Assembly: GCA_016280395.1 (NCBI GenBank)
Contig: JAEEGQ010000162.1
Location: 1 to 28,756, forward strand
DNA from: Lachnospiraceae bacterium
GTDB lineage: Bacteria; Bacillota; Clostridia; Lachnospirales; Lachnospiraceae
Length of the DNA stretch: 28,756 bases
Direction: 5' to 3'
Each line of letters opens with the position of its first letter. Positions within the stretch are counted from its first letter, which is position 1. Positions 1,167-25,981 of this stretch are shown in pieces. Position numbers and translations under genes: made by a program. The notes under the pieces were generated by a model that had not been told where the DNA came from, did no database searches, and was given only the letters and a program-made list of their open reading frames with translations.

Positions 1167-1209
1167 GAGACAAAGGCGTCTCTGATCTAAGGGGTCAGAG
1201 ACGCTTTTT
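1167..1209 (+). terminator. Intrinsic terminator with an overlapping small hairpin, a candidate attenuator in front of glnN.
   Basis: The stem is gcgtctctga (1176-1185) paired with tcagagacgc (1195-1204), followed by TTTTT. A mutually exclusive 5-bp hairpin gagac-AAAGGC-gtctc (1167-1182) shares the stem's 5' arm. The glnN RBS follows 12 nt later and no promoter is evident. Confidence 0.55.
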
Positions 1210-3334: not shown

Positions 3335-3348
3335 AACGTGATACAAAG

Positions 3349-3390
3349 TCATCCCACAACGGCGTGGAACTGTTGCGGGGTGGCTTCTTT
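3349..3390 (+). terminator. Intrinsic terminator or attenuator between glnN and amt.
   Basis: A stem of about 12 bp (tcatcccacaac paired with gttgcggggtgg, one mismatch and two G-U pairs) is followed by cttcTTTTTT. A nested small hairpin ccac-AACGGC-gtgg lies at 3354-3367. The RBS AGGAGG follows directly. Confidence 0.5.
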
Positions 3391-3407
3391 TTTAGGAGGA
3401 TAAAGTT

Positions 3408-5189
3408 ATGACAGAAGAGATCATGAAGTTATTTGAAGGCCTTGACGGCGAGATTTTTGCGGTGTGGTTCCTTATCGGAGCGGCCCTGGTGTTCTGGATG
3501 CAGGCCGGCTTTGCGATGTGCGAAGCGGGTTTTACAAGGGCAAAGAACTCCGGAAACATCATTATGAAAAACCTTATGGATTTCTGTATCGGTACCGTGA
3601 TGTGGTTTATCTGCGGCGCTTCGCTGATGCTCGGGAAAAACGTTCTCGGCGGCTTTTCCGGCAGCATAAACTTTGATGTTTTCACCAAATACGGTGATTT
3701 CGATTATTCCATGTTTGTATTCAACCTTGTGTTCTGCGCAACGACAGCTACAATAGTTTCGGGTTCCATGGCTGAGAGGACGAAATTTTCAAGCTATTGC
3801 GTCTATTCTGCAGTGATCTCGGCTGTTATCTATCCGATCGAGGCACACTGGACCTGGGGCGGCGGATTCCTTGCCGACTGGGGATTCCACGATTATGCGG
3901 GGTCCAACTGTATCCACATGGTAGGCGGTATCTGTGCATTTATCGGCGCATGGATGCTTGGACCGCGCATCGGCAAGTTTGAGCGCGACAGCAAAGGCAA
4001 AGTAACAAAAGTAAACGCATTTCCCGGTCACAACCTTGTGATCGCGGCTCTGGGCGTGTTCATCCTGTGGCTCGGCTGGTACGGCTTCAACGGTGCTGCC
4101 GCAACGGATGTTGCTACACTCGGTTCCGTTTTCCTTACAACAACCGTTGCTCCTGCCGTTGCCACTGTTGTCTGTATGATATTTACCTGGGTAAAATACG
4201 GAAAACCCGATGTTTCCATGTGCCTCAACGCCTCACTTGCAGGTCTTGTCGCGATCACCGCGCCATGTGACGTGACGGATTGCGCAGGCTCAGCGATCAT
4301 CGGTGCCGTAGCCGGACTCCTCGTGGTCTTCGGTGTCTGGTTCAACGACAATGTAACCCATGTGGATGACCCCGTTGGTGCCGTTGCGGTACATATGCTC
4401 AACGGTATCTGGGGTACGGTTGCTGTAGGTCTCTTTGCTACGGACACAGCTCCGGGATTTGCGCTTGCGGGGATTGAAAAAGGCCTTTTCTACGGAGGCG
4501 GTGTAAAGCAGCTCGGACTGCAGTTTGCCGGCATGGGTATCACTGCGGCATGGACCGTTGTTACCATTCTTATCGCATTCTTCATCATCAAAAAGACTAT
4601 CGGGCTCAGGGTATCCGAAGAAGAGGAGATCACGGGTCTTGACGCTACGGAACACGGGCTTCCTTCAGCTTACGCAGGCTTTTCGATCATGGATATTTCC
4701 AACACCATGACCATGAGCGTAAACGAAAATACAAACCTCGGAACGGATTCTTACGCCGACGCATCGAAGGCACAGAAGATGGCAGCGGTACCTGTCGTAA
4801 GAGCGGATGAGGGGATACCGAAAGACTTCTCCACAGGCATGTCAAAGGTTGTCATCATCGCAAAGCTTTCAAGATATGAAGTCTTAAAACGTGCCATGAA
4901 CGATCTTGGTGTAACAGGCATGACCGTTACCCAGGTTATGGGCTGCGGCGTCCAGAAAGGCGCCGGTGAGAAATACCGCGGAGTTGAGATCGACGCAACG
5001 CTGCTTCCGAAAGTCAAACTTGAAGTGGTTGTCAGCGAGATCCCTGTGGACGCTGTTATTGAAGCCGCCAAGAAGGCACTTTATACCGGACACATCGGCG
5101 ATGGCAAGATATTCGTATACCCTGTCAGCAGAGTCGTTAAGATCCGCACGGGTGAAGAGAATGCCGCCGCTCTGCAGGATGTGGAATGA
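3408..5189 (+). CDS. amt: Ammonium transporter (Amt/MEP family) fused in frame to a C-terminal P-II (GlnB/GlnK-type) nitrogen regulatory domain.
   Basis: The N-terminal about 440 aa are a polytopic membrane protein of Amt type. The last about 115 aa (MSKVVIIAKL...GVQKGAGEKYRGVEIDATLLPKVKLEVVV...GDGKIFV) are a canonical P-II fold with a T-loop Tyr. There is no stop or internal RBS between the two domains. Confidence 0.85.
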   Translation: MTEEIMKLFEGLDGEIFAVWFLIGAALVFWMQAGFAMCEAGFTRAKNSGNIIMKNLMDFCIGTVMWFICGASLMLGKNVLGGFSGSINFDVFTKYGDFDYSMFVFNLVFCATTATIVSGSMAERTKFSSYCVYSAVISAVIYPIEAHWTWGGGFLADWGFHDYAGSNCIHMVGGICAFIGAWMLGPRIGKFERDSKGKVTKVNAFPGHNLVIAALGVFILWLGWYGFNGAAATDVATLGSVFLTTTVAPAVATVVCMIFTWVKYGKPDVSMCLNASLAGLVAITAPCDVTDCAGSAIIGAVAGLLVVFGVWFNDNVTHVDDPVGAVAVHMLNGIWGTVAVGLFATDTAPGFALAGIEKGLFYGGGVKQLGLQFAGMGITAAWTVVTILIAFFIIKKTIGLRVSEEEEITGLDATEHGLPSAYAGFSIMDISNTMTMSVNENTNLGTDSYADASKAQKMAAVPVVRADEGIPKDFSTGMSKVVIIAKLSRYEVLKRAMNDLGVTGMTVTQVMGCGVQKGAGEKYRGVEIDATLLPKVKLEVVVSEIPVDAVIEAAKKALYTGHIGDGKIFVYPVSRVVKIRTGEENAAALQDVE

Positions 5190-5203
5190 ACAGAAAAAAA
5201 TGC

Positions 5204-5232
5204 TTGACATTCTGTTGCGATAGAGCTATCAT
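5204..5232 (+). promoter_or_regulatory. Sigma-A type promoter for gltBD.
   Basis: TTGACA lies at 5204-5209, a 17-nt spacer follows, and TATCAT lies at 5227-5232. An inverted repeat AACAGAA (5189-5195) and TTCTGTT (5210-5216) flanks the -35 box. Confidence 0.5.
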
Positions 5233-5240
5233 CACAGAAT

Positions 5241-5323
5241 AAAGGCAAAGGCGTCTTGGATGAGTCCAAGGCGCCCTTTTTTTAGGCAAAGGCGCCACGT
5301 TTGGTCGTGGTGTCTCTTTTTTT
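5241..5323 (+). promoter_or_regulatory. gltB leader with three AAAGGC hexamers and two tandem intrinsic-terminator hairpins. It is a candidate transcription-attenuation leader.
   Basis: AAAGGC occurs at 5241, 5247 and 5288. Terminator 1 is ggcgtcttgg-atgagt-ccaaggcgcc followed by T7 (5250-5283). Terminator 2 is gcgccacg-tttggt-cgtggtgt followed by ctcT7 (5292-5323). The gltB RBS GGAGG is at 5342-5346. Confidence 0.55.
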
Positions 5324-5352
5324 AGGATATCTGAGTCGTATGGAGGTAAGTG

Positions 5353-8300
5353 ATGTCGGGACTTTTTAAAACCATTGCGGAAAAAGGGCTGTATTCGGAC
5401 AGCTTTGAACATGATAACTGCGGTATCGGAGCCATCATAGATATTGAGGGCAGGGCCAGCCACGGCATAGTCTGCGATGCGTTATCCATAGTTGAAAACC
5501 TTGAACACAGGGCCGGGAAGGATGCAGACGGTAAGGTGGGGGACGGCGTCGGAATCCTGACCCAGATCCCTCACAGATTCTTTGTAAAGAAGCTCGCCGA
5601 ACAGGGGGTGACACTCGGCGGACCGCGCTCCTACGGTGTCGGCATGTTCTTTTTCCCTGCAAAGGACCTTGATATGCGCCAGGCAAGGTCTTTGTTTGAG
5701 ATCATAACAGGGAAGGCGGGCCTTAAGATACTTGCATGGCGGAAGGTGGATTCCGCGCCGGAAGTGCTCGGTGAAAAAGCAAGGAACTGTATGCCGGGGA
5801 TCTGTCAGGTGTTTATAGAACGTCCTTCACGTGCCAAGACCGATCTTGATTTTGACCGTATGCTCTACGTGATAAGACGCGAATTTGAACAGAGCTGTGT
5901 AAATACCTATGTTCCTTCGCTTTCCTGCAGAACGATAGTGTACAAGGGCATGTTCCTTGTGGGACAGCTGCGGTCTTTTTACAGGGACCTTGAGGATGAG
6001 GACTATGAGTCCGCTATAGCCATGGTCCACTCACGCTTCTCAACAAATACCGAACCAAGCTGGAACCGTGCGCATCCTAACCGCCTTCTTGTGCATAACG
6101 GCGAGATAAATACCATAAAGGGCAATGCCGACAAGATGCTCGCGAGGGAAGAGACCATGCATACCGCGGCCTTCAGCGATGAGGATATGACAAAGGTGCT
6201 TCCTGTGATACACATGAGCGGTTCGGATTCCGCAATGCTTGACAACACCCTTGAATTCCTGCTCATGAGCGGTCTTGATCTTCCGCTTGCGGCTATGATA
6301 CTTGTCCCGGAACCCTGGTCGCACAACGAAACGCTTTCAGCGGAGGAACGGGACTTTTACCAGTATTACGCGACCATGATGGAGCCCTGGGACGGACCGG
6401 CATCGATCCTTTTCTCCGACGGCGACTCCATGGGTGCGATCCTTGACCGCAACGGTCTTAGACCTTCAAGGTATCTTGTGACGGACGACGGCAGGCTTAT
6501 CCTGTCCTCCGAGGCGGGTGTACTGCCTGTGGACGAAAAGCATATCATCAAAAAAGAACGCCTTCATCCGGGTAAGATCCTTCTTGCGGACACTAAAACA
6601 AAGCGGATATATTACGACGAAGAATTAAAGGAAAAGTATGCCCTGTCAAGCCCTTACGGCGAGTGGCTTGACAGCAATCTTCTTGCCTTAAGGGAGCTTA
6701 AGATACCTAACAAAAAAGTGACTGAGCTTTCCGGAGACTACAGAAAAAAACTTCAGAAGGCATTCGGCTATACCTGGGAGGATTACCGCGACGGAATACG
6801 CAGCATGGCGCTCACGGGGGCCGAACAGATAGGCTCGATGGGCGTGGATACGCCGCTTGCTGTGCTGTCTGACAGTTACCAGCCGCTGTTTTATTATTTT
6901 AAGCAGCAGTTTGCCCAGGTGACAAATCCGCCGATAGATGCACAGCGTGAAGAAATAGTTACCTCAAGGACGGTCTATCTTGGGAAAAACGGAAACCTGC
7001 TTCAGGAAAAGCCCGAAAACTGCCATGTATTAAAGATCAACAATCCGATCCTCACGGATCTCGATCTCCTTAAGATCGAAAACATGAAGCATGAGGGCTT
7101 TACGGTCGCAAAGATTTCGACTCTCTTTTATAAGAGCACGCCCATGAAACGTGTGCTCAAGCAGCTTTTCATAGAGGTTGACAAGGCCTACAGGAACGGC
7201 GCGAATATCCTGATCCTTTCGGACCGGGGCATGGACGAGAACCATGTTGCGATCCCCTCGCTCCTTGCGGTTGCCGCCGTTCACAGACATCTTGTTGATA
7301 CAAGAAAATGCACTGCCATGTCGCTGATCCTTGAATCAGGCGAACCAAGGCAGGTACACCATTTCGCAACTCTCCTCGGATACGGCGCTTCGGCGGTAAA
7401 TCCGTATCTTGCGCATGCCTCGATAATGGAGCTTATCGAGGACGGCCTTCTTGACAAGGATTATTATGCCGCAGTGCAGGATTACGATAATGCGATCCTG
7501 TTCGGGATAGTAAAGATCGCTTCAAAGATGGGCATTTCCACGATACAGTCCTATCAGGGCAGCAAGATGTTTGAAGCCGTGGGGATATCATCTGAAGTGA
7601 CTGACGAGTATTTTACAGGCACTGTAAGCCGTATCGGCGGCATCACCCTGGATGATATCGGAAGAGCGACCGACGAACAGCACAGCAGGGCCTTCGATCC
7701 CCTTGGACTTGCGGCAGACACGGAGCTTAAGGCTTTTGGACGACACAAGGAGAGGAGCGGGGGCGAAAGCCACAGATATAACCCGGAGACCATACATGCG
7801 CTCCAGGCAGCAACACGTGAAGGTGATTATGCGAAATTCAAACAATACACAAAGCTTGCAGATACCGAAAAAACGGGATATTTAAGGTCTCTTCTGGATC
7901 TTGTGCCGGAAGGCCCGGAAGTGCCGCTTGAAGAAGTTGAGCCGGAAGAGGAGATAGTAAAAAGGTTCAAGACCGGTGCCATGTCTTACGGTTCCATATC
8001 GCAGGAAGCTCACGAAACGCTTGCTGTCGCAATGAACCGCCTGCACGGAAAGTCCAACAGCGGTGAAGGCGGTGAAAGTGACGAAAGACTTAGTACCGGG
8101 GAATACGAAAATGAGAAAAATTCCGCTATAAAGCAGGTTGCGAGCGGACGTTTCGGTGTTACCGGGAAATATCTTGTAAGCGCAAAGGAACTCCAGATCA
8201 AGATGGCGCAGGGCGCAAAGCCCGGTGAAGGCGGTCATCTGCCGGGAAAGAAGGTGTACCCGTGGATAGCAAAGACAAGGCACTCCACACCCGGTGTGAG

Positions 8301-9906
8301 CCTTATCTCTCCGCCGCCTCATCATGATATTTATTCCATAGAGGATCTGGCACAGCTTATCTATGATCTGAAAAATGCGAATAAAAACGCAAGGATCTCG
8401 GTAAAACTCGTATCCGAGGCAGGAGTCGGGACTGTGGCCGCAGGTGTTGCAAAGGCCGGAGCTGGAGTTATCCTCATCTCGGGATATGATGGCGGAACCG
8501 GAGCGGCGCCGCTCTCATCCATACATAATGCCGGACTCCCGTGGGAAATGGGTCTTGCCGAGACACACCAGACGCTTGTTGCAAACGGTCTCAGGAACCG
8601 TGTCGTTATCGAGACGGACGGAAAGCTCATGACCGGCAGGGATGTGGCTATAGCTGCAATCCTCGGAGCGGAGGAGTTCGGTTTTGCAACGGCACCGCTT
8701 GTAACAATGGGCTGTGTGATGATGCGTGTATGCCAGTCGGATACATGTCCTATGGGCATAGCCACCCAGAATCCGGAATTAAGAAAGCGCTTCAGGGGTA
8801 AGCCCGAATATGTGGAAAACTTCATGCGCTTTATCGCAAGGGAATTAAGAGAGATCATGGCCAAACTGGGCGTTAGGAGCATCAATGAGCTGGTTGGGCG
8901 CACAGATCTCCTGAAGGTAAAGGATTCTGCAGGAAACGCAGCTAAGCTGAACCTTTCAAGGATACTTCCTTCCATCGGGGGATTACACGGCAGCAAGGCC
9001 ATATTCGATCCTTCAAGAAGCTTTGATTTCAAGCTTGACAAGACGCCTGATGAAAGTGTGCTCCTTGCTTCAAAGGCGGTCAGAAAGTCGCTTGAAAAAG
9101 GCGAAAAAAGCAGTATCAGGATAAATGTGAAGAATACAGACAGGACCTTCGGAACGCTCCTTGGCGCGGAAATAACAAGGCGGTATCCGGACGGACTTGA
9201 AACGGACACGATAACGGTGGATTGTCTGGGTGCCGGAGGACAGAGCTTTGGCGCGTTCATTCCAAAGGGGTTAAGGCTCGATCTTACCGGTGAGAGCAAC
9301 GATTATTTCGGGAAAGGGCTTTCGGGCGGTACTCTTGTTGTTAAAGCGCCAAAGGAAGCAAAGTACGATCCGTCAAAGAACATCATCATAGGCAATGTCG
9401 CACTGTACGGGGCAACATCCGGAAAGGCTTTTGTGGCGGGAATGGCTGGCGAGCGTTTCGCAATAAGGAATTCCGGCGCAAGGGCTGTTGTCGAAGGTGT
9501 CGGAGAGCACGGCTGCGAATATATGACAGGCGGCTGCGTTGTTATCCTCGGACCGACCGGAAAGAATTTTGCGGCCGGTATGAGCGGCGGGGTAGCATAT
9601 GTTCTTGACGAAGAAAATAAGCTCTATAAAAACCTGAACAAGCAGCTTGTTACCATGGAGAATGTGGAAAACAGGAATGACAGGGAGGAATTAAAGAAGC
9701 TTATCGAGGAGCATGTCGCATCCACAGGTTCCGCTAAGGGTAAAGCGATCCTTGAAGCTTTTGACTCTTATGTTGACCACTTCAAAAAGATAATCCCCAC
9801 GGATTACAAGGAAATGCTCAGGCTTATACTTATGAACGAGGAAAACGGGCTTGACGGTGAAACGGCAAAGATCGAGGCATTTAAGACTTTCGTCGGAGGT
9901 GTGTGA
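5353..9906 (+). CDS. gltB: Glutamate synthase large subunit.
   Basis: The protein is about 1517 aa. It has an N-terminal Ntn amidotransferase Cys, FMN and Fe-S central and C-terminal domains, and a G-rich C-terminal repeat region. The start ATG at 5353 lies 6 nt after GGAGG. Confidence 0.92.
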   Translation: MSGLFKTIAEKGLYSDSFEHDNCGIGAIIDIEGRASHGIVCDALSIVENLEHRAGKDADGKVGDGVGILTQIPHRFFVKKLAEQGVTLGGPRSYGVGMFFFPAKDLDMRQARSLFEIITGKAGLKILAWRKVDSAPEVLGEKARNCMPGICQVFIERPSRAKTDLDFDRMLYVIRREFEQSCVNTYVPSLSCRTIVYKGMFLVGQLRSFYRDLEDEDYESAIAMVHSRFSTNTEPSWNRAHPNRLLVHNGEINTIKGNADKMLAREETMHTAAFSDEDMTKVLPVIHMSGSDSAMLDNTLEFLLMSGLDLPLAAMILVPEPWSHNETLSAEERDFYQYYATMMEPWDGPASILFSDGDSMGAILDRNGLRPSRYLVTDDGRLILSSEAGVLPVDEKHIIKKERLHPGKILLADTKTKRIYYDEELKEKYALSSPYGEWLDSNLLALRELKIPNKKVTELSGDYRKKLQKAFGYTWEDYRDGIRSMALTGAEQIGSMGVDTPLAVLSDSYQPLFYYFKQQFAQVTNPPIDAQREEIVTSRTVYLGKNGNLLQEKPENCHVLKINNPILTDLDLLKIENMKHEGFTVAKISTLFYKSTPMKRVLKQLFIEVDKAYRNGANILILSDRGMDENHVAIPSLLAVAAVHRHLVDTRKCTAMSLILESGEPRQVHHFATLLGYGASAVNPYLAHASIMELIEDGLLDKDYYAAVQDYDNAILFGIVKIASKMGISTIQSYQGSKMFEAVGISSEVTDEYFTGTVSRIGGITLDDIGRATDEQHSRAFDPLGLAADTELKAFGRHKERSGGESHRYNPETIHALQAATREGDYAKFKQYTKLADTEKTGYLRSLLDLVPEGPEVPLEEVEPEEEIVKRFKTGAMSYGSISQEAHETLAVAMNRLHGKSNSGEGGESDERLSTGEYENEKNSAIKQVASGRFGVTGKYLVSAKELQIKMAQGAKPGEGGHLPGKKVYPWIAKTRHSTPGVSLISPPPHHDIYSIEDLAQLIYDLKNANKNARISVKLVSEAGVGTVAAGVAKAGAGVILISGYDGGTGAAPLSSIHNAGLPWEMGLAETHQTLVANGLRNRVVIETDGKLMTGRDVAIAAILGAEEFGFATAPLVTMGCVMMRVCQSDTCPMGIATQNPELRKRFRGKPEYVENFMRFIARELREIMAKLGVRSINELVGRTDLLKVKDSAGNAAKLNLSRILPSIGGLHGSKAIFDPSRSFDFKLDKTPDESVLLASKAVRKSLEKGEKSSIRINVKNTDRTFGTLLGAEITRRYPDGLETDTITVDCLGAGGQSFGAFIPKGLRLDLTGESNDYFGKGLSGGTLVVKAPKEAKYDPSKNIIIGNVALYGATSGKAFVAGMAGERFAIRNSGARAVVEGVGEHGCEYMTGGCVVILGPTGKNFAAGMSGGVAYVLDEENKLYKNLNKQLVTMENVENRNDREELKKLIEEHVASTGSAKGKAILEAFDSYVDHFKKIIPTDYKEMLRLILMNEENGLDGETAKIEAFKTFVGGV

Positions 9907-11393
9907 TGGGAAAGACAACAGGTTTTCTCGAGTATGACAGAGTGCAGGGAGAGGTAAGACCTGCAAAAGAACGTATAAAGGATTTTAAGGAATTTCATGG
10001 GAAGCTGTCCTTCGAGGAGCAGAGAAAACAGGCGGCAAGATGCATGGACTGCGGCGTGCCCTACTGCCAGGCCGGGAAGATGATAGCGGGGATGGCCTCC
10101 GGATGCCCGCTGCAAAATCTTGTGCCTGAGACAAATGATCTTGTGTATCTCGGAAAGCTTGAAAAAGCTTATGAAAGACTCAGTATTACACACCCGTTCC
10201 CGGAGTTTACGAGCAGGGTGTGCCCGGCTCTTTGTGAAGCGGCCTGCACCTGCGGCGTGAACGGGGAGCCCGTGTCCACAAAGGAAAACGAAAAGACGAT
10301 AATCGAATATGCCTTTGAGCACGGGCTTACAAAAGAGGCGCCGCCTGCAGTAAGGACAGGGAAAAGGGTGGCTGTTGTGGGCAGCGGGCCGGCAGGGCTT
10401 TCTGCAGCCCAGACACTGAACCGCAGGGGACACGAAGTGACTGTCTACGAAAGAAAGGACAGGATCGGAGGTCTCTTAAGGTATGGAATCCCGAATATGA
10501 AACTTGACAAGTCTGTGATCGACAGACGCGTAAAACTGATGGAGGAGGCCGGCGTCCGTTTTATATGTAATGCGGATGTCGGAAAAGACACTGCCGTTTC
10601 CGAATTACTCGACACATACGACAGCGTCATTCTGGCATGCGGAGCATCGAATCCGAGAAATATCGATGCTCCGGGCCGTGACGCGAAGGGGATACGGTTT
10701 GCGGTGGATTTCCTTTCCGAAGTCACAAAAAAGCTTCTTGATTCGGATTTTAAGGATGTGCCGTATGAGCTTGCAAAGGGAAAGGATGTTGTCGTTATAG
10801 GCGGCGGAGATACGGGGAATGACTGTGTTGGAACCTGTATCAGGCTTGGAGCGAAGAGCGTAAAGCAGATTGAGATGATGCCAAAGCCTCCGGCAGAGAG
10901 GACCGCTTCAAACCCGTGGCCCGAGTGGCCGAAGGTCTTAAAGACAGATTACGGCCAGGAGGAGGCAATAGAGGTTTTTGGCTCCGATCCGCGCATTTAC
11001 AAGACCACGGTCAGCGAATTTGTTAAGGATAAAAAGGGAGCGCTTAAGGAACTGGTGCTGATCTCACTTGAACCGCACCGGGATGAAAAGACGGGGCGGA
11101 CAGTGATGAAGCCGGTTGAAGGCAGCGAGACCAGGATACCGGCGCAGCTTGTTCTCATAGCGGCAGGGTTCCTTGGGAGCGAGGCTTATGTTACCGAAGG
11201 GTTCGGCGTGGAAGTTGACGGGAGGACCAATGTTTCGACAAAACCCGGCAGCTATGCGTCATCACGGGAAAAAGTCTATACGGCGGGAGATATGCACAGA
11301 GGACAGTCTCTTGTTGTCTGGGCCATTGCTGAGGGCAGAAGATGTGCCCGTGAGGTGGACCGTGATCTGATGGGATACAGCAATATCGATTAA
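9906..11393 (+). CDS. gltD: Glutamate synthase small (NADPH-dependent) subunit.
   Basis: The protein has an Fe-S cysteine cluster (CMDCGVPYCQ) and the FAD/NAD dinucleotide motif VAVVGSGPAGLSAA. Its ATG overlaps the gltB TGA (TGATG), which indicates translational coupling. GGAGG lies 7 nt upstream. Confidence 0.9.
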   Translation: MGKTTGFLEYDRVQGEVRPAKERIKDFKEFHGKLSFEEQRKQAARCMDCGVPYCQAGKMIAGMASGCPLQNLVPETNDLVYLGKLEKAYERLSITHPFPEFTSRVCPALCEAACTCGVNGEPVSTKENEKTIIEYAFEHGLTKEAPPAVRTGKRVAVVGSGPAGLSAAQTLNRRGHEVTVYERKDRIGGLLRYGIPNMKLDKSVIDRRVKLMEEAGVRFICNADVGKDTAVSELLDTYDSVILACGASNPRNIDAPGRDAKGIRFAVDFLSEVTKKLLDSDFKDVPYELAKGKDVVVIGGGDTGNDCVGTCIRLGAKSVKQIEMMPKPPAERTASNPWPEWPKVLKTDYGQEEAIEVFGSDPRIYKTTVSEFVKDKKGALKELVLISLEPHRDEKTGRTVMKPVEGSETRIPAQLVLIAAGFLGSEAYVTEGFGVEVDGRTNVSTKPGSYASSREKVYTAGDMHRGQSLVVWAIAEGRRCAREVDRDLMGYSNID

Positions 11394-13037
<1,644 letters not shown>

Positions 13038-13052
13038 GATAAAGGTTTGGTT

Positions 13053-14168
13053 ATGAAGTCAGACAGAAAATTGGTTTTGGAAGACGGCACCGGGTTTGTG
13101 GGAACGGGCTTTGCGAGCCGGAAGGATACAGTGTGCGAGGTGGTCTTTAACACCTCGCTCACAGGCTATCAGGAGATAGTTTCGGATCCTTCGTACACAG
13201 ACCAGGGAGTGGTAATGTCTTACCCGCTGATAGGAAATTACGGGATTAACAGTGACGACCATGAAAGCAGGCTTATTGCGCCTGCCGCGCTTATAGTGCG
13301 AGACATATGTGATGCTCCTTCGAATTTCAGGTCGGAAAAGACACTTTGCGATCTTCTTCTTGAAGCAGACATACCGGGACTTGCGGGCGTGGACACAAGG
13401 CGCCTGGTAAGGAGCATAAGGGATACGGGAACAAGGCGTGCGCTGCTCACGGATATCGATATGCCGGTGAGTAAGGCGGTGGAGATCATTAAGAACTCGC
13501 CTGTGAGGCATGATGCCGTTAAGCGCGTAAGCTGTGCCGTAAGACAGTACTATCCGGCCGCGGAGGCCCGTTTTCACGTGGTTGCGATAGATTGCGGCAT
13601 GAAGACCAACATTGTCAGGATGCTGAATGCTTACGGCTGCAGTGTGACTGTTGTCCCATATGATACGGACGCTATCCGGATATTAAGCCTTTCGCCCGAT
13701 GGCCTGTTTATATCTAACGGGCCCGGAGATCCCGAGGATGTCCCGGAAGTAATAGAAACCTTAAGAGCATTGAGGGGGAAGCTTCCGATGTTCGGGATAT
13801 GTCTCGGACACCAGCTTATAGCACTGGCGTACGGTGCGAGGACTTATAAGCTTAAGTTCGGGCACAGGGGCGGAAATCATCCCGTGAAGGATCTGCTGAC
13901 AGGAAAGATCGGGATGACATCCCAGAACCACAGCTATGCTGTAAAGGAAGACAGCCTTGAGGGAACGGGCCTTAAGGTGTCGCATATAAATCTGCTCGAC
14001 AACACGGTGGAAGGGCTGTACTCAACGGAGGATCCGGTATTCTCGGTGCAGTATCACCCTGAAAGCGCTCCGGGTCCGCATGATGAGTGCGGATTGTTTG
14101 AAAAGTTTACAGAGCTTATGGGGAAATGTGCCCGGAACGGAGGCAGCAAAGATGCCAAAAAGAACTGA
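13053..14168 (+). CDS. carA: Carbamoyl-phosphate synthase small (glutaminase) subunit.
   Basis: The N-terminus ...LVLEDGT.F.G..F and the GATase motif GICLGHQ (catalytic Cys) are present. The ATG at 13053 is preferred over TTG at 13047. The gene overlaps the carB start by 17 nt. Confidence 0.88.
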
Positions 14169-17100
14169 CATAAAGAAAGTCCTTGTTATAGGCTCGGGAC
14201 CGATAGTCATCGGTCAGGCGGCGGAGTTTGACTATGCCGGGACACAGGCCTGTCTGGCATTAAAGGAAGAAGGGTACGAGGTGGTGCTGGCGAACTCTAA
14301 TCCCGCTACAATCATGACCGACCATGCCATAGCTGACAAGGTTTATATGGAGCCGCTCACGATAGAATATCTTGCAAGGATCTGCCGCTACGAGAGGCCT
14401 GATGCGCTGGTGCCGGGACTTGGAGGCCAGACGGGGCTTAACCTTTCATTGCAGCTTGCGGACAAGGGCGTGCTGAAAGAGTGCGGGATAGAGCTGCTCG
14501 GAACAGATGCAGAGGGCATAAGGCGCGCAGAGGACCGCGAGCTTTTCAAGGAACTCTGCGAGGAGCTCGGAGAGCCCGTGGTGCCCTCAAAGATCACTAC
14601 AAGTGTGGAGGAAGGCCTTGAGGCTGCGGCAGAGATAGGGTACCCTGTGTGCCTTAGGCCCGCATTTACGCTTGGCGGTACGGGGGGCGGCTTTGCGGGA
14701 AACGACGAAGAGATGCGCGAGAAAATGAAGCTGGCGCTGGAAATATCGCCTGTAAGCCAGGTGCTTGTGGAAAAGAGCATAAAAGGTTACAAAGAGATAG
14801 AGTACGAGGTGATGCGGGATGCCTGCGACACCGCCATCACAGTCTGCAACATGGAAAACCTCGACCCTGTCGGGATCCACACAGGCGACAGTATAGTGGT
14901 AGCGCCGAGCCAGACGCTGACAAATAAAGAATATCAGATGCTGAGGGACAGCGCTCTTAAGATCATCAGGGCCCTTAAAGTGAAGGGGGGCTGTAATGTG
15001 CAGTTCGCACTTGATCCGTATTCTTTTGCATATTATGTGATAGAGGTTAATCCAAGGGTTTCAAGGTCATCGGCTCTTGCGTCAAAGGCCACAGGGTATC
15101 CGATCGCAAGAGTCTCCGCAAAGATCGCGGTGGGGATGAACCTCGACGAGATCAGGCTTGCCAACACTCCCGCATGCTTCGAGCCGGCACTCGACTATGT
15201 TGTGACCAAGATACCGCGGTTTCCGTTCGACAAATTTACGGAGGCTTCAAATGTGCTTTCGACACAGATGAAGGCTACGGGCGAGACCATGAGTATAGGG
15301 CGTACTTTTGAGGAAAGCCTGCTTAAAGCCATAAGGTCTTTAGAGGACGGAAAAAACCATATCCATCTTGAAAAGTTTGATGTGAAGAGCCTTTCGGATA
15401 AGCCTGAACCTGAAAACAGGAAGGAAGCAGTCGAAAAACTGCTCAAGTACATTGAAGAAGGCACGGATGACAGGATATATGCCATTTCCGAGCTGATGTG
15501 GCTGGGCACCGGGCCGCGGGAGATCTGTAAAAGAACAGGGATAGACCCGTTTTTCCTCGATAAGATAGGCAACATCGTGAATTTTGAAGTGAAGATCGAA
15601 AGAGAAGCGAAGGCGACGAAGAACATAACCCGTGATCTTCTGTTCGAGGCCAAACGCATGGGTTTTTCGGACTCTTATATCGCAGAGCTTGCAGGGTGCA
15701 CGGAGGATGAAATCTTTGATCTCAGAAAAAAATATGGTATCAGACCGGTTTATAAGATGATAGATACATGCGCCGGCGAGTTTGAGAGCTACGTACCGTA
15801 TTTCTATTCGACTTATGAGGAAGAGAACGAATCTGTTGTTTCCGGCCGTAAGAAGGTCATAGTGCTGGGCTCGGGGCCGATCAGGATAGGACAGGGCGTT
15901 GAATTTGATTATTCCACGGTTCATGCTGTTAAAACTATTCAGGATATGGGCTATGAGGCCATCGTTATAAACAATAATCCGGAAACGGTATCTACCGATT
16001 ATACTACGGCGGATAAGCTGTATTTTGAGCCTCTGACCAAAGAAGATATATGTAACATCATTGAACTTGAAAATCCGGAAGGCGTTATCACGAGCCTTGG
16101 CGGACAGACTGCGGTAAACCTTGCAGAACCGCTCGAAAAGCGTGGTGTAAGGATCCTGGGGACCGGGACAAAGGCTATTTTTAAGGCTGAGGACCGGGAC
16201 GCTTTTGAAAATGTCCTTATAGAACAGGGAATACCGCATCCCGAGGGTGTCGCTGTGACAACGGTTGAAGAAGGCATAAGCGCTGCGGCAGGGATCGGGT
16301 ATCCGGTGCTCGTTCGCCCGAGTTTTGTTCTTGGGGGCAGGGCGATGGAGATCGTTGCAAACGAAAAGATGCTCGTAAAATACCTTTCAAACGCTGTGGC
16401 CGTGGACAAAGACCATCCGGTACTGATCGACAGGTATATATCGGGGAAAGAGGTAGAAGTTGACGCGGTCTGCGATGGTACGGAGGTTTTTCTGCCGGGA
16501 ATAATGGAGCTTGTTGAACGGACAGGCGTCCATTCCGGTGACAGCTTCAGTATATATCCGCCTTTTTCGCTGTCTGAAAAGGTGAAGGAAACCATAACGG
16601 AATATACGCGCAAGCTTGGCCTCGGACTTGGCATAAAGGGCCTTTTCAATATACAGTTCATAGTTGATAAGAATGATGATGTCTATATCATCGAAGTCAA
16701 CCCGAGGGCCTCAAGGAGCGTGCCTTTTCTCTCAAAGTCGGCGGGGATCCCGCTTGTGGATATAGCAGTAAGGGTAATGCTCGGGGAATCCCTCGCTGCG
16801 CAGGGATATAATGTGGGATTGCCGGAGAACGGGCAGATGTGGTATGTTAAGGCGCCGGCATTCTCGTTTGCAAAGCTCGGAGGCATGGATGCTTACCTTT
16901 CGCCGGAGATGAAGTCCACCGGAGAGGCAATAGGCTATGATAAGAGCCTTAAAAGAGCTTTATATAAGGCTTTGAAAGCCTCCGGTGTGAAGATCAGGGA
17001 ATATGGGACGGTGATCGTGACACTTGCTGACGAGGACAAAGATGAGGCGCTGCCGCTCGTGCGACGGTTTTATGAGCTTGGGTTCAATATCCAGGCTACG

Positions 17101-17379
17101 ATCGGGACCGGCCTGTTCCTGAAGGAACATGGGATAAGGACAAGGATCCTCGGTAAGATAAGCGAAGGCAGCAGCGATATACCGGACTCTATACGGAGCG
17201 GGTATGTAAGCTATATAGTCAATACAAGAGCCATACTGTCGGGAGTGCATTACAGCGATGGTGCCGATATCAGAAAGTGCGCCATCAGGAACGGAGTGAC
17301 CATGTTCACCTCCCTCGATACGGTAAGGATACTGCTTGATGTGCTTGAGGATATCATGCCCGGGATAGCCGCGATATGA
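14152..17379 (+). CDS. carB: Carbamoyl-phosphate synthase large subunit.
   Basis: The N-terminus [30 protein letters not shown] is typical. The protein is about 1075 aa with duplicated ATP-grasp halves. The start is chosen at the ATG after GGAGG (14138-14142). The ORF-track start at 14080 is an extension. Confidence 0.92.
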
Positions 17380-17428
17380 GGTCTTCGATCCTGCCGGCTT
17401 TGATTCTTTGATTCTTTTTCTTTTTTTG

Positions 17429-17457
17429 TTGACTGTTGGCTTTTTTAAGTTTATCAT
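17429..17457 (+). promoter_or_regulatory. Sigma-A type promoter for purA.
   Basis: TTGACT is at 17429-17434, a 17-nt spacer follows, and TATCAT is at 17452-17457. A T-rich tract with the direct repeat tttgattc x2 lies just upstream. Confidence 0.45.
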
Positions 17458-17509
17458 ATAGGGGCATGCGGAAATTCGTATCCGTAAATACTCTTATGTG
17501 GAGGAAGAT

Positions 17510-18784
17510 ATGGTTAAGGCAGTTGTCGGCGCTAACTGGGGCGACGAGGGAAAAGGCAAGATAACGGACATGCTTGCGCAGGACGCTGATATCGTTATAA
17601 GGTTTCAGGGCGGTGCCAATGCAGGGCATACTATCGTGAACAAATACGGAAAGTTCGCGCTTCATACTCTTCCGTCCGGAGTTTTTTACGACCATGTCAC
17701 AAATATAATCGGCAACGGTGTTGCTCTTAATATCCCGAAGGTAATGGATGAGATCAAAGGGATCGTGGACAGGGGCGTTCCGATGCCTAAGCTTAAGATA
17801 TCCAACAGGGCACAGATCGTTATGCCTTATCATATCCTTTTCGATCAGTATGAGGAGGAGCGCCTTGGCGGGAAGTCCTTCGGCTCGACCAAATCAGGTA
17901 TCGCCCCGTTCTATTCCGATAAATACGCAAAGATCGGCTTTCAGGTGAGCGAACTCTTTGACGAGGATACCCTGAAAGATAAGGTACAGAGCGTGCTCGC
18001 GGTGAAGAACATCCTGCTTGAGAATCTTTATCATAAGCCCGCCATCGACCCCGCAGAGCTTCTTGAAACTCTTCATGGCTACAGGGATATGGTGGCTCCT
18101 TACGTTGCGGATGTTTCCAAATTTCTCTGGGATGCCGAAAAAGAGGGGAAGATCATTCTTCTTGAGGGCCAGCTTGGTACGCTTAAGGATCCGGATCACG
18201 GAATCTACCCGATGGTGACTTCTTCTTCGACACTTGCGGCTTACGGCGCTATTGGCGCAGGGATACCGCCTTATGCCATCAAACAGGTTGTTACGGTTTG
18301 CAAGGCATATTCTTCGGCTGTCGGAGCAGGTGCTTTCGTTTCCGAGATCTTCGGCGATGAGGCAGATGAACTCAGACGTCGCGGAGGAGACGGCGGTGAA
18401 TACGGCGCAACCACAGGCAGACCCCGCAGAATGGGCTGGTTTGATTGTGTTGCGTCAAAATACGGCTGCAGGCTTCAGGGCACAACAGATGTAGCTTTCA
18501 CGGTCCTTGACGTTCTGGGATATCTTGACGAGATCCCTGTCTGCACAGGATATGAGATAAACGGAAAGGTTACAGATGAATTTCCCGTTACCGTCGAACT
18601 TGAGAAGGCTAAACCCGTGCTTGAGACACTTCCCGGCTGGAAGTGCGACATCCGCGGAATAAAGAAATACGAAGATCTTCCTGAAAACTGCAGGAACTAT
18701 ATCGAATTCATCGAAAAGAGGATCGGCTTCCCCATCACCATGATAAGCAACGGTCCTTCGAGGGATGATATCATTTACAGGTAA
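17510..18784 (+). CDS. purA: Adenylosuccinate synthetase.
   Basis: The GANWGDEGKGK P-loop-like motif is present. The protein is about 424 aa. The start ATG at 17510 lies 6 nt after GGAGG. The ORF-track start at 17498 is an extension. Confidence 0.9.
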   Translation: MVKAVVGANWGDEGKGKITDMLAQDADIVIRFQGGANAGHTIVNKYGKFALHTLPSGVFYDHVTNIIGNGVALNIPKVMDEIKGIVDRGVPMPKLKISNRAQIVMPYHILFDQYEEERLGGKSFGSTKSGIAPFYSDKYAKIGFQVSELFDEDTLKDKVQSVLAVKNILLENLYHKPAIDPAELLETLHGYRDMVAPYVADVSKFLWDAEKEGKIILLEGQLGTLKDPDHGIYPMVTSSSTLAAYGAIGAGIPPYAIKQVVTVCKAYSSAVGAGAFVSEIFGDEADELRRRGGDGGEYGATTGRPRRMGWFDCVASKYGCRLQGTTDVAFTVLDVLGYLDEIPVCTGYEINGKVTDEFPVTVELEKAKPVLETLPGWKCDIRGIKKYEDLPENCRNYIEFIEKRIGFPITMISNGPSRDDIIYR

Positions 18785-18796
18785 ATATACTATTTT

Positions 18797-18832
18797 GAAA
18801 GTATCGCTTTTTGCGGTACTTTCGTGCTTTTA
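18797..18832 (+). terminator. Hairpin downstream of purA, a probable terminator.
   Basis: An 11-bp stem (gaaagtatcgc paired with gcggtactttc) has loop TTTTT, followed by gtgcTTTTa. Confidence 0.45.
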
Positions 18833-18864
18833 CAGTATTCCAAAAAGTGAACGGAGACAGATAT

Positions 18865-20511
18865 ATGAACAGACCAAAGGAACTGATCCTTGTCATAGAT
18901 TTCGGAGGCCAGTACAACCAGCTTGTGGCAAGGCGCGTGCGTGAGTGCAATGTGTATTGCGAGATCTATTCCTACAGGACGCCGCTTGAAAAGCTGCTTG
19001 CGATGAAGCCTGCGGGCTTTATACTTACGGGAGGCCCCGCAAGCTGCTATGAGGAGGGGGCTGCCACCTGCGCGCCCGCGCTGTTTGAGTCCGGCGTGCC
19101 GGTACTCGGATTATGCTACGGAGCCCAGCTCATGAGCTATGTGCTCGGCGGAAATGTTGAGCGCGCAAGTATGCGTGAATACGGTAAAACAGAGGTTGAG
19201 ATCGATACGACATCGGCACTTTTTGCGGGAGTTTCCCCAAAAACAACCTGCTGGATGAGCCATTTTGATTATATCTCGAGGCTTGCTCCCGGTTTCAGGG
19301 CAACGGCACACACGGCCAACTGCCCCGTTGCTGCCGCAGAGGATGCTGCACGCGGGCTTTACGCGATCCAGTTCCACCCGGAAGTCCTCCATACACCGGA
19401 GGGCTCTAAGATGCTCTATAACTTCGTACGCGGCATCTGCGGATGCAGCGGCGACTGGAAAATGGACACATTTGTGCAGGATTCGATAAAAGCGCTTCGC
19501 GAGAAGATAGGGGACGGCAGAGTGCTGCTGGCTCTTTCCGGAGGTGTGGATTCCTCTGTTGCGGCCGCGCTCCTTTCGAAGGCTGTCGGCAACCAGCTGA
19601 CCTGTGTGTTCGTAGATCACGGCCTGCTGCGCAAAAACGAAGGCGATGAAGTCGAGGCTGTATTCGGACCTTCCGGCAATTTCAAACTGAATTTCGTGCG
19701 CGTGAACGCGCAGGAGAGGTATTACGCAAAGCTTGCGGGCGTCGAGGAGCCGGAGCACAAGCGAAAGATCATAGGCGAAGAGTTCATCCGCGTCTTCGAG
19801 GAAGAAGCGAAAAAGATTGGAGCAGTGGACTTCCTCGCCCAGGGCACTATTTATCCTGATGTTGTGGAGTCCGGCCTCGGCGGCGAATCCGCCGTGATCA
19901 AATCGCACCACAATGTGGGTGGTCTGCCGGATTTCGTGGATTTCAAGGAGATTGTAGAGCCTTTAAGGAACCTGTTCAAGGATGAGGTCAGAAAGGCAGG
20001 GCTTGCGCTCGGGCTTTCAAGGGACCTTGTGTTCAGGCAGCCCTTCCCGGGGCCCGGACTCGGGGTGCGTATCGTTGGTGAAGTGACTGCAGAAAAAGTC
20101 AGGATAGTTCAGGATGCGGACGCCATTTACCGCGAAGAGATCGCAAAGGCTGCGGAGGCGTGGAGGAAGAACCACGTGTCTTGCGTGGAAGGAACGATCA
20201 TAAACGAGAACGGAGAAAAAGAGTGTCATCGCAACGGTGAGAACGAGAACCCGCCGTGGATGCCCGACCAGTATTTTGCAGCCCTCACAAATGTTCGTTC
20301 TGTAGGTGTTATGGGAGATGAGCGTACCTACGATTACGCTGTCTGCCTGCGCGCCGTAAAGACCATAGATTTCATGACTGCAGAGGCGGCACAGATCCCG
20401 TTTGAGGTGCTCCAGACAGTAATGAGCAGGATAATAAACGAGGTGAGGGGCATAAACAGGGTATTCTACGATTTGACAAGCAAACCACCGGGAACGATAG
20501 AACTTGAATAA
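18865..20511 (+). CDS. guaA: GMP synthase (glutamine-hydrolysing).
   Basis: A class-I GATase domain (LGLCYGAQ) and the ATP-PPase PP-loop SGGVDSS are present. The C-terminus has the form ...GTIELE. The start ATG at 18865 follows GGAGA. The ORF-track start at 18811 is an extension. Confidence 0.9.
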
Positions 20512-20743: not shown

Positions 20744-21244
20744 TTAGTCAAATAAATCCTGTGGAGGAACTTTTGCAAAGTGCGTATGAGTTGTCTGACC
20801 GACAGTTGGATAGTGATATCTCCAAGCATCATATTCATCCTGGGTGATCTGACCGGATCTGAGTGCTTCGGACTTATCCATCCAATCCATCAGCATGTCA
20901 TAAAACAGCATGCTGTCAGGGTGATTCCTTAAATCAAGATAAAGCTGTGGCTGTCCGTCTTCTGCCTTTTCAATCTTGAGACCGTAGCGATCTTCAATAG
21001 CGAAGAGGGTATGAATAAGCCCTGTGAAAGAATCGATATTGGGAACCTTCAGGGCATCGGGTTTAACGTCAAAAAGCTCAGCCATAGCCTGAACAAGATT
21101 ATCCTTTGGAACACGGTTTTCGCTCTCATATTGAGCCATACGGACATCGGCAGATTTTTCATCAAAGCCGATCTGAGTACCTACATATTTTTGTGTCATT
21201 CTGCGTTTACTACGGAAGAAATGGATTCGTTCTCCTATTGCCAT
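20744..21244 (-). CDS. XRE-family helix-turn-helix transcriptional regulator with a C-terminal domain of about 100 aa and unknown function.
   Basis: The N-terminus MAIGERIHFFRSKRRMTQKYVGTQIG... is a typical HTH_3. The RBS AAAGGAG lies 8 nt upstream of the ATG at 21244. The ORF-track start at 21412 is an extension. Confidence 0.6.
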   Translation of the reverse strand: MAIGERIHFFRSKRRMTQKYVGTQIGFDEKSADVRMAQYESENRVPKDNLVQAMAELFDVKPDALKVPNIDSFTGLIHTLFAIEDRYGLKIEKAEDGQPQLYLDLRNHPDSMLFYDMLMDWMDKSEALRSGQITQDEYDAWRYHYPTVGQTTHTHFAKVPPQDLFD

Positions 21245-21502
21245 AGTGAGGGCTCCTTTCGCTTGATTGAACGGAAATATAACAGATTTCTTCGAAATTC
21301 TGATATCTTTAGGAAATTTAGAGAATGGTGGTTTAAGTTTCGTGGACTTGAGAAAACAAAAACTAGTATTTACGAGCGACTTAAGGAAGCGCAAAAGCTT
21401 GCAGATGAGCATAATGCGCAGTGTAAGAGTTAGCTTAAGAAAAAAAGGAACATGGATTGGAGAGATAGAGAATACAAAACACCGGAACTAAATATCATAG
21501 AA

Positions 21503-21540
21503 AGCAAAGGCTAGTACCAATATTGGGAATAGCCTTTGCT
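21503..21540. repeat. Perfect 11-bp inverted repeat with a nested palindrome. It is either an orphan terminator-like hairpin or a protein-binding site.
   Basis: agcaaaggcta (21503-21513) pairs with tagcctttgct (21530-21540). The loop contains the palindrome ccaatattgg. tattttct follows. Confidence 0.5.
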
Positions 21541-21707
21541 TATTTTCTAGGAAATTTTTTGGATTTTGTGGTTCATATTAGGGATGTACCAAAACATCAT
21601 AATACTTGTAAATTATAAATATAATAAGACCATGTGTTGTAATTACAGAATCATATGATATACTTTCAATAGAGTTTGAAAATGAAAAGAATTCGGAGGG
21701 GGTTATA

Positions 21708-22688
21708 ATGGCTTTTTGCAAATATTGTGGAGAAAAAATAGAGAATAATGCTAAGTTTTGTTCTTCTTGTGGTAAAGCAATAGAACCAAATGAAAAAGAT
21801 ACAAATCAAAAAACTCGAGAAGAAAAAATGAAGAAAAATAAATGTCCAAATTGCGGAGAAATAATGGACGCATTTGAAGTAAAGTGTCCTTCTTGCGGCT
21901 TCGAAATAAGAGATATTGATGCAGCAGAGTCAATAAGAAATTTATCAAAAATAACACAAGAAATTGAAAATACAAGAGAAAATGCTAATCCAATTATTTC
22001 AATGTTTACAGATGGGTTAGTGGTTGGAAAAACTGATTCAAAGATTGTTAGTGTAATTCAAAATACTCCGATCCCTAATACAGTTGAGGATATTGTAGAA
22101 TTTATGATTATAGCATCATCTAATATTAATCCGGCTGCATACGCTAATTTAGGAGTAACTTCGTATGGTGTTGCATCACAGGGTGAAAAGGCGAAATCTA
22201 GAGCTTGGGAGTCCAAATTAAACCAAGCCTATAATAAAGCTAAATTATCCTTTAAAGATGAGGAGCAGTTTGAACAAATACAAAGGATTTATGACGAAAC
22301 ACATGATAAAATCCGTCAAGCGCAAAAAGAATCTAAAAAAGCATATAGTCACATAATGCGAAGCTCACTTTTTATGTTAGTTTTGATGTTTGCGTTTTTG
22401 ATTATACTTGCTGTTGTTTTGAGTATAAGAGATGAAAAAATGATTGATAATGGTGCAATTTGCCCAAGCTACAGTTCGCGTGAATTTAAAGGAATGCAAT
22501 ATGAAGATGTAACAAATATATTAGAAAAGGATGGTTTTACTAATATAGTAACAAAAGGTAGTAAAGGAACTATCATGGATGGATTAGATTCCGGAGAAGT
22601 AATAAAGGTAACTATAGACGGTACTTATTGCACAAAGGGGTCATATGAGGAACCTGATGCGCCAGTTTTAATTGAGTATAAAAAATAG
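21708..22688 (+). CDS. Double zinc-ribbon, single-pass membrane protein with a small C-terminal extracytoplasmic alpha/beta domain (PASTA-like by eye).
   Basis: Two CxxC...CxxC pairs are present (CKYCG...CSSCG and CPNCG...CPSCG). There is one hydrophobic helix (LFMLVLMFAFLIILAVVL). GGAGG is at 21695-21699. The promoter is probably TTGTAA with extended -10 TGATATACT at about 21636-21671. Confidence 0.7.
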   Translation: MAFCKYCGEKIENNAKFCSSCGKAIEPNEKDTNQKTREEKMKKNKCPNCGEIMDAFEVKCPSCGFEIRDIDAAESIRNLSKITQEIENTRENANPIISMFTDGLVVGKTDSKIVSVIQNTPIPNTVEDIVEFMIIASSNINPAAYANLGVTSYGVASQGEKAKSRAWESKLNQAYNKAKLSFKDEEQFEQIQRIYDETHDKIRQAQKESKKAYSHIMRSSLFMLVLMFAFLIILAVVLSIRDEKMIDNGAICPSYSSREFKGMQYEDVTNILEKDGFTNIVTKGSKGTIMDGLDSGEVIKVTIDGTYCTKGSYEEPDAPVLIEYKK

Positions 22689-23153: not shown

Positions 23154-23193
23154 CTTTAATAGATACTTAATATGTATTTTCGGAGGTATTTTT

Positions 23194-24822: not shown

Positions 24823-24872
24823 TATAATATAGTATTAGTGTAAAAAAATTCGTAATGATTCTAATTTAATTC

Positions 24873-25972: not shown

Positions 25973-25981
25973 GGTGAGTAA

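Follow-up and report, generated by a model that had tools for sequence, protein, structure and literature searches.

Two probable ANTAR-type attenuators in tandem in the gltB leader of a Lachnospiraceae nitrogen-assimilation cluster

ANTAR proteins read RNA hairpins through two positions of a six-nucleotide loop, A1 and G4 (PMC3369931, PMC8934654), and the sites on which they act lie mostly upstream of nitrogen genes, including those for P-II, amt and glutamate/glutamine synthase (PMC3369931). Here we examine the leader of the glutamate synthase gene gltB in a stretch of 28,756 nucleotides (nt) from a Lachnospiraceae bacterium (contig JAEEGQ010000162.1, assembly GCA_016280395.1), which we call the window, and compare it both with these systems and with 80 related Lachnospiraceae loci (labelled L001 etc.). 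We think it likely that this leader carries, in tandem, two transcription attenuators of ANTAR (NitR-like) type, each complete in itself, and that the same module gates two further genes of the window, glnN and amt-PII.

In the described ANTAR targets (EutV/eut, NasR/nasF and AmiR/amiE; Ramesh et al. 2012, Walshaw et al. 2022), a short hairpin with an A1/G4 hexaloop, its stem conserved only as structure, excludes an overlapping intrinsic terminator, and several such sites serve one operon or regulon in front of nitrogen genes. The module described here shares all of these traits. Of the features by which Ramesh et al. recognise ANTAR sites, the window shows A1 and G4 in all four loops, stems of at least 3 bp (5 and 3 bp at gltB) that covary across the family, and overlap with a terminator. 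Canonical sites, however, consist of two hairpins, P1 and P2, joined in eut by a linker of 5-12 nt and served by one terminator, whereas the family to which the window belongs has mostly a single hairpin at the 5' end and a tighter loop consensus, AANGGY closed by C-G. The gltB leader differs from the canonical arrangement in another way, since its two hairpins lie 27 nt apart and each has a terminator of its own. A single hexaloop is the minimal ANTAR binding motif, and in the EutV-RNA structure G4 flips onto a tyrosine (PMC8934654).

In Clostridium, NitR is reported to antiterminate the genes of glutamine synthetase (GS) and glutamate synthase (GOGAT) under nitrogen limitation, and two articles that cite Stutz et al. 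2007 (PMC6316151, PMC4676874) present it as a REC-ANTAR protein controlling glnA-nitR and gltAB in C. saccharobutylicum and C. acetobutylicum. On that description, the NitR system resembles the window and its relatives in belonging to the Clostridia, in its GS/GOGAT targets and in having a REC-ANTAR gene beside a GS-type gene; in the relatives, the module also stands in front of the GS-like/ANTAR operon. It differs in that the GS-like/ANTAR pair is absent from the window, where the main GS is of type III (glnN), and in that the regulon of the relatives is wider, taking in asnB, amt-PII, pyrG, purF, gdhA and the gene for LL-diaminopimelate aminotransferase. A search of the literature on NitR or ANTAR in Lachnospiraceae brought up little of relevance. 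In principle, both the mechanism and its connection with nitrogen genes were known before; what is new is the architecture, in which single-hexaloop units sit at the transcript's 5' end and are doubled at gltB.

The gltB leader and its sister sites

The leader occupies the 160-nt gap between amt-PII (3408-5189, stop codon 5187-5189) and gltB (Table 1). AAAGGC occurs there three times (5241-5246, 5247-5252 and 5288-5293); the first copy is mostly the 5' arm of hairpin 1, the second is the loop of that hairpin and the third the loop of hairpin 2. An exact second copy of AGGCAAAGGCG lies 41 nt from the first, and one of CTTTTTTTAGG 40 nt, with wholly different stems in between. Terminator 1 takes its 5' arm from hairpin 1 (loop positions 4-6 plus the 3' arm), and the 5' arm of terminator 2 overlaps the loop and the 3' arm of hairpin 2. 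A sequence-only reading of this DNA had placed two back-to-back terminators with U7 tracts here, each preceded by AAAGGC. Both are present, as G+C-rich stem-loops directly before a U-tract, which is the mark of an intrinsic terminator. Their stems, however, have 11 and 10 bp rather than 10 and 8, the first loop is a UGAG tetraloop and the second terminator spans 5290-5323. The AAAGGC copies exist too, but their GGC lies within the terminators, where it forms the first three pairs of each stem.

Table 1 Features of the gltB leader, its sister sites and the adjoining genes (positions in the window; regulatory functions are predicted)
Feature	Position	Strand	Details
Sigma-70-type promoter	5204-5232	+	TTGACA-17-TATCAT; 11 of 12 consensus positions
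Hexaloop hairpin 1 (antiterminator 1)	5242-5257	+	AAGGC 5242-5246, loop AAAGGC 5247-5252, GUCUU 5253-5257
Intrinsic terminator 1	5250-5283	+	GGCGUCUUGGA / UGAG / UCCAAGGCGCC, then C + U7; stem-loop 5250-5275, 11 pairs; T7 at 5277-5283
Hexaloop hairpin 2 (antiterminator 2)	5285-5296	+	GGC, loop AAAGGC 5288-5293, GCC; 3-bp stem
Intrinsic terminator 2	5290-5323	+	AGGCGCCACG / UUUGGU / CGUGGUGUCU, then C + U7; stem-loop 5290-5315, 10 pairs, hexaloop; T7 at 5317-5323
glnN attenuator	1167-1209	+	hairpin GAGAC-AAAGGC-GUCUC 1167-1182, loop 1172-1177; overlapping terminator 1176-1204, then T5 1205-1209
amt-PII attenuator	3346-3393	+	hairpin CCAC-AACGGC-GUGG 3354-3367, loop 3358-3363; terminator ~3346-3386, then T6 3388-3393
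Ribosome-binding site GGAGG (5342-5346) and gltB start codon	5342-5355	+	read from sequence
gltB	5350-9906	+	Pfam GATase_2, Glu_syn_central, Glu_synthase, GXGXG
gltD	9903-11393	+	Pfam match and open reading frame (ORF) coordinates; taken as regulated together with gltB

Folded as a whole, the leader (5236-5352) reaches -42 kcal/mol, against -28.6 +/- 3.2 kcal/mol for shuffled sequences (z = -4.2; none of 200 shuffles as good). In isolation, terminators 1 and 2 fold at -18.4 and -15.7 kcal/mol, and hairpins 1 and 2 at only -2.6 and -2.8 kcal/mol. Because the hairpins are so weak relative to the terminators, the default state should be termination, and read-through should need a factor that clamps the hairpins. 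Forcing both hairpins in constrained folds removes both terminators (-18.5 versus -36.5 kcal/mol), and hairpin 1 and terminator 1 are mutually exclusive. The fold check that the earlier reading had proposed thereby confirms that terminator and antiterminator exclude each other, and its idea of an antitermination-controlled leader that terminates by default in a nitrogen operon gains support from the folds and from the family described below. Hairpin 1 recurs in the amt leader of L023 and, in near-identical form, in the glnN leader of L007; the second unit, GGC-AAAGGC-GCC, is found unchanged in the gltB leader of L014.

A self-complementary GGCGCC stands both at the end of terminator 1 (5270-5275) and at the start of terminator 2 (5291-5296), and the two copies can pair. 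The hairpin that they would form (5270-5296, -10.5 kcal/mol) appears in co-transcriptional folds with hairpin 1 forced, and loses to terminator 2 at full length. It may, speculatively, act as an RNA relay between the two units, one that the folding models make kinetically possible but do not favour at equilibrium.

The promoter in front of these units, already pointed out in the sequence-only reading, is the top promoter-like site within 4000-6500; an A-tract (5194-5200) lies upstream of its -35 box, and a homologous promoter, again TTGACA-17-TATCAT, occupies the same place in L003. Judged from the promoter's position, transcription would start at about 5238-5240. A promoter can be recognised at 57 family sites, and at 39 of these only 5-13 nt (mode 11) separate the end of the -10 hexamer from the hairpin. 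The corresponding distance at unit 1 of the gltB leader is 9 nt, and since this spacing fits the family architecture it supports a start near 5239, where the earlier prediction (5239-5240) had also put it.

A palindrome, AACAGAA/TTCTGTT, had been noted around the -35 box as well. It is real (5189-5195 and 5210-5216), but lacks comparative support because ACAGAA/TTCTGT is not enriched in related promoters, where it occurs in just 3 of 55. We therefore set it aside as an operator and regard it as due to chance or as lineage-specific. Around the gltB promoter, ACAGAA is found three times (5190-5195, 5211-5216 as its reverse complement, and 5234-5239), and a 15-nt, 80% palindrome (5209-5223/5226-5240) spans the spacer and the -10 box; in L003 the -35 box is flanked by TTCTGA-N15-TCAGAA.

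Sites of the same design precede glnN and amt-PII (Table 1); at amt-PII, the hairpin falls within a long terminator, in its 5' arm and loop. ViennaRNA folds reveal the terminators of both leaders, at -20.6 kcal/mol (glnN) and -22.4 kcal/mol (amt-PII), neither of which a terminator scan had returned. The CCAC/GUGG stem variant stands before amt-PII also in L001, L002, L003, L005, L021 and L024, with UCCAC/GUGGA in L032. When the window was searched for an AANGGY hexaloop hairpin with a stem of at least 4 bp and a following T-run, three sites were found, against 0.44 in shuffles; together with the 3-bp hairpin 2 they are exactly the leader sites of glnN, amt and gltB. A covariance model, R1, which was built from the sites of other species only, leaving out the window, ranks the four window sites as its top four matches. 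Unit 1 of the gltB leader is the best of these (5239-5264; 26.3 bits, E = 5e-5), followed by the glnN site (1164-1189; 25.3 bits, E = 1e-4), the amt-PII site (3350-3375; 13.7 bits, E = 0.17) and unit 2 of the gltB leader (11.2 bits).

The module in related Lachnospiraceae

The 80 related loci contain 121 matches to the combination of hexaloop hairpin and T-run, 98 of them on the correct strand and just ahead of a nitrogen gene's start. Sorted by downstream gene, the matches belong to glnN (29), gltB (29, a few of which are false and lie inside coding sequence), amt-PII (23), asnB (7), pyrG (7), GS-like genes (6), gltD (6) and carA (1), and most of the remainder precede purF or the genes for NADP-glutamate dehydrogenase (gdhA) or LL-diaminopimelate aminotransferase. 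Because the module also stands before this last group of genes, the regulon in the relatives is wider than GS/GOGAT. Individual instances from that group are found in L017 (7906), L079 (15447 and 14094), L005 (10845), L071 (2419), L024 (6542), L029 (5948) and L030 (6272).

The stems vary by gene and lineage and yet stay complementary (GAAGC/GCUUC, UUGAC/GUCAA, AAGAC/GUCUU, AAAGC/GCUUU, CCAC/GUGG, ACGC/GCGU). At 99 sites, which were pre-selected for possessing a stem, 82% of stem cells are paired compared with 62% in shuffles, and the covariation score is 0.66, compared with 0.23 in shuffles (none of 500 as high) and 0.09-0.22 in slid-partner controls; one stem pair position reads AU 45 times, GC 34 times and CG 15 times. 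A check free of this selection gave at least 4 flanking pairs in 63% of the AANGGY plus T-run sites within 300 nt upstream of nitrogen genes; for AANGGY at large in the loci, the figure was 4%. In a scan unbiased as to the loop, AAAGGC was found 44 times, AATGGC 15 times and AAGGGC 11 times, any loop outside AANGGY at most 5 times; the hexaloops enriched when the loop was left free were solely AAAGGC, AATGGC, AAGGGC, AAGGGT, AAAGGT and AACGGC. The loop is closed by a C-G pair at 97 of the 99 sites. Judged by this comparison of sequences, the hexaloop hairpin is a real conserved RNA structure, present at about 100 sites.

The tie to a terminator is regular as well: of 102 sites, 97 have as their minimum-energy fold a hairpin whose end lies no more than 3 nt from the T-run, and the terminator overlaps loop G4 and the 3' arm in 91 sites and starts at loop position 3-5 in 77. 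Most family sites have a single hexaloop, its hairpin 0-6 nt from the predicted 5' end, and as the RNA starts only a few nucleotides before the hairpin, the 39 promoter-bearing sites with the spacing given above leave no room for an upstream P1. Two complete units, each with its terminator, are found in nine leaders of the data set, L003 among them, with gaps between the hairpins of 27-124 nt; the gap in the window is the shortest, those of the other tandem leaders being 45-124 nt. Tandem terminators in a leader, which the earlier reading had called unusual, are thus uncommon but not unique.

Tandem T-boxes and riboswitches likewise place two complete sensor-terminator units in series, which results in multiplicative repression and a sharper response. 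Those elements sense a ligand or a tRNA, whereas both gltB units would be read by the same protein. We read the two single-hexaloop units in series at gltB as a double checkpoint.

Proposed mechanism, candidate reader and rival explanations

Under the reading that we favour, transcription would begin at about 5239. The unaided RNA would fold into terminator 1, and any polymerase escaping it would then meet terminator 2, leaving the operon off by default, twice. The 5' arm of each terminator would start within the AAAGGC hexaloop of a weak hairpin of 3-5 bp; by binding that hexaloop, an activated ANTAR antiterminator would hold the small hairpin closed and so block the terminator, and polymerase would continue into gltBD-pyrG-carAB. 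With modules at glnN, amt-PII and gltB, the whole cluster would form one nitrogen-assimilation regulon, which is presumably switched on by nitrogen limitation, as in the case of Clostridium NitR.

A candidate for the reader comes from the relatives. In L002, a REC-ANTAR protein of 194 amino acids is encoded between amt-PII and gltB, beside a GS-like gene; it matches the Pfam ANTAR domain at 3.7e-11 and, among PDB entries, Rv1626 at 2.4e-9 and AmiR at 3.4e-5. At least eight loci (L002, L004, L009, L010, L024, L025, L067 and L071) have the GS-like/REC-ANTAR pair no more than 8 kb from gltB, and the module is present in the leader of the pair's GS-like gene in L002, L004, L067 and L071, as well as in those of the GS-like genes of L063 and L076. 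In L002 the pair spans 6178-7992. The GS-like protein there has 404 amino acids, is divergent (249 bits against the GlnA equivalog, whose cut-off is 429) and is always paired with a REC-ANTAR gene; the receiver domain of the REC-ANTAR protein is without the usual N-terminal acidic pair (VLIVSASGQ). By analogy with AmiC for AmiR or NasS for NasT, this pseudo-receiver may have its sensor partner in the GS-like protein. We infer that in the window's organism, too, the hexaloops are read by a REC-ANTAR protein like that of the relatives.

The anatomy of the leader, the exclusion seen in folds, the conservation and covariation of about 100 sites, their placement at nitrogen genes and the ANTAR linkage in relatives are all seen directly, and together they carry the reading of two tandem ANTAR attenuators. 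Several points weigh on the other side. The transcription start, actual termination, the binding of the reader protein, its identity and the signal are deduced. No ANTAR gene was found in the 28.7-kb window by tblastn with the ANTAR and GS-like proteins of L002 as queries. Unit 2 of the gltB leader has a stem of just 3 bp, and its R1 score (E = 0.85) is not significant on its own; Rfam holds no model with which an ANTAR-type element could be scored. Finally, an upstream P1 hairpin is not enriched over shuffles (15 observed versus 13 expected) when ANNGNN loops are sought upstream of 120 sites with a minimum stem of 3, 4 or 5 bp and a maximum distance of 40, 60 or 90 nt, so the dual-hairpin requirement published for EutV is unmet at most sites.

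The glnN and amt leaders of the window have no recognisable P1, and a candidate before amt, AGCT-ACGGNA-AGCT, was rejected because it is conserved C-terminal coding sequence of glnN. Several related gltB leaders, in L006, L010, L011, L013, L016, L019, L021 and L027, do contain an upstream hexaloop hairpin, placed 15-64 nt before the terminator-linked one; only a subset of the related gltB leaders are longer and show a convincing P1. In such leaders P1 is often long-stemmed (5-9 bp) and followed by a U-rich stretch (L016 1027-1050, L011 7721-7740, L010 2394-2415, L006 172-187), and may itself be a weak terminator or pause site.

These eight leaders bring us to the best of the alternatives, which we nevertheless judge unlikely: that the gltB leader of the window is one canonical dual-hexaloop ANTAR site, with hairpin 1 as the recruiting P1, hairpin 2 as the P2 that blocks terminator 2, and terminator 1 a secondary feature of the linker. 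A dimer would bind P1 and be handed on to P2. Formally the leader does fit the definition of Ramesh et al. (PMC3369931), since both of its hairpins have stems of 3 bp or more and A1/G4 hexaloops, and a variable linker joins them; spacings of about 28-30 nt are common among the eight leaders with an upstream hexaloop hairpin, the window having 27 nt, and a model of successive binding has been published (PMC8934654). Against this, terminator 1 is of full strength, with a U7 tract and a lower folding energy than terminator 2, and the family model fits unit 1 rather than unit 2 by 26.3 to 11.2 bits. Most family sites, moreover, use one hairpin close to the 5' end, and the units of other tandem leaders lie 45 nt or more apart, each with a terminator of its own. 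In eutP, induction is already lost with linkers of 3 or 14 nt (PMC3369931).

The sequence-only reading had taken AAAGGC for a tandem repeat recognised by a multimeric protein of the TRAP, HutP or PyrR type, in preference to an ANTAR dimer. TRAP binds 9-11 GAG/UAG triplets, HutP two sets of three UAG and PyrR a specific binding loop. In these systems, as would be the case at gltB, a protein decides in the 5' leader whether terminator or antiterminator forms, but their arrays are absent from the gltB leader: there is no spaced-triplet array and no GAG/UAG run, only two UAG triplets, and what had looked like a repeat consists of one stem arm and a loop. Nor is the 5' AAAGGC copy conserved; in relatives its place is taken by GAAGC, UUGAC, AAGAC, CCAC and others, always complementary to the 3' arm and covarying with it. 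The preference was therefore the wrong way round, the conserved part being a single AANGGY hexaloop with the ANTAR determinants A1 and G4. That some non-ANTAR RNA-binding protein reads the site, be it such a multimer, the GS-like protein or a PII domain, strikes us as very improbable. The want of an ANTAR gene in the window would suit it, and the AANGGY loop with its C-G closing pair is tighter than the generic A1/G4 rule, so that another dedicated reader is conceivable; in the relatives, however, a REC-ANTAR gene is embedded in the same clusters and shares the module.

Harder still to credit is a plain constitutive double terminator that ends the asnB-glnN-amt transcript, the promoter match being fortuitous or weak and regulation absent. 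The terminators do lie 61-134 nt after the amt-PII stop codon and would halt upstream read-through too. Between that stop codon and the terminators, however, stands a promoter matching the consensus at 11 of 12 positions, and there is none other between the terminators and gltB; promoter-hairpin-terminator modules with a fixed -10-to-hairpin spacing begin about 40 transcription units, and a conserved hexaloop with a covarying antiterminator stem would be pointless in a plain terminator. A small-molecule riboswitch or leader-peptide attenuator that senses glutamine or another nitrogen metabolite is the least probable explanation of all: the gene context would suit a glutamine sensor, but Rfam 15 gave no match at the gathering score anywhere in the window (glutamine riboswitch included) and, at E up to 10, only unrelated, chance-level, sub-threshold matches in 5150-5400, at 16 nt the conserved hairpin is not large enough to form a ligand pocket, and the gltB leader contains no leader ORF.

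Gene context and meaning

By Pfam, the gene order of the window is asnB (truncated by the window start), glnN, the amt-PII fusion, gltB, gltD, pyrG, carA, carB, purA and guaA, a content from which the cluster is read as serving nitrogen assimilation and glutamine use. The glnN product, a type III glutamine synthetase, is the main GS of the window, and nearly all relatives of its GltB at 68-81% identity come from rumen or gut Lachnospiraceae, which places the source of the window among such bacteria. The Amt-PII protein (593 amino acids) joins an ammonium transporter to a PII (GlnK-like) domain, a fusion that relatives such as L002 share. For gltB itself, the in-frame ATG at 5353 is a more likely start than the GTG at 5350. 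The genes gltB, gltD, pyrG, carA and carB are tightly packed (in the region 5350-20511), with overlaps or gaps of 0-9 nt; a separate promoter-like site, TTGACT-17-TATCAT (17429-17457), precedes purA and guaA. The stretch 5350-20511 is a long series of glutamine- or aspartate-consuming biosynthetic genes downstream of the nitrogen attenuators, and in other species pyrG, carA and purF carry hexaloop attenuators of their own. The 3' third of the window (20744-28099) is of another kind, encoding a weakly matching helix-turn-helix protein (minus strand), a double zinc-ribbon protein, an SPFH/Band-7 protein with GYF_2 and an ORF6N-domain protein, and it may be a mobile-element or prophage remnant.

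More tentatively, and at somewhat less than an even chance, rumen and gut Lachnospiraceae may run their whole nitrogen regulon through 5'-end single-hexaloop ANTAR attenuators. P1 would then be dispensable in nature, and units would be stacked where tighter control is needed, as at gltB, possibly with a GGCGCC relay by which one binding event defeats both terminators.

The roughly 100 covarying single-hexaloop sites offer a natural set for testing the model in which a recruitment hairpin is required during transcription. Cultured relatives also carry the module, namely Butyrivibrio sp. MC2013, the Lachnospiraceae bacteria C6A11 and YSB2008, and Lachnospira multipara LB2003, which makes direct testing possible. 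On the reading of two tandem ANTAR attenuators at gltB with sister sites at glnN and amt-PII, a single RNA module, recurring at each gene boundary, accounts for the coordination of GS III, Amt-PII, GOGAT and the glutamine-consuming enzymes downstream of them in an uncultured rumen Lachnospiraceae.

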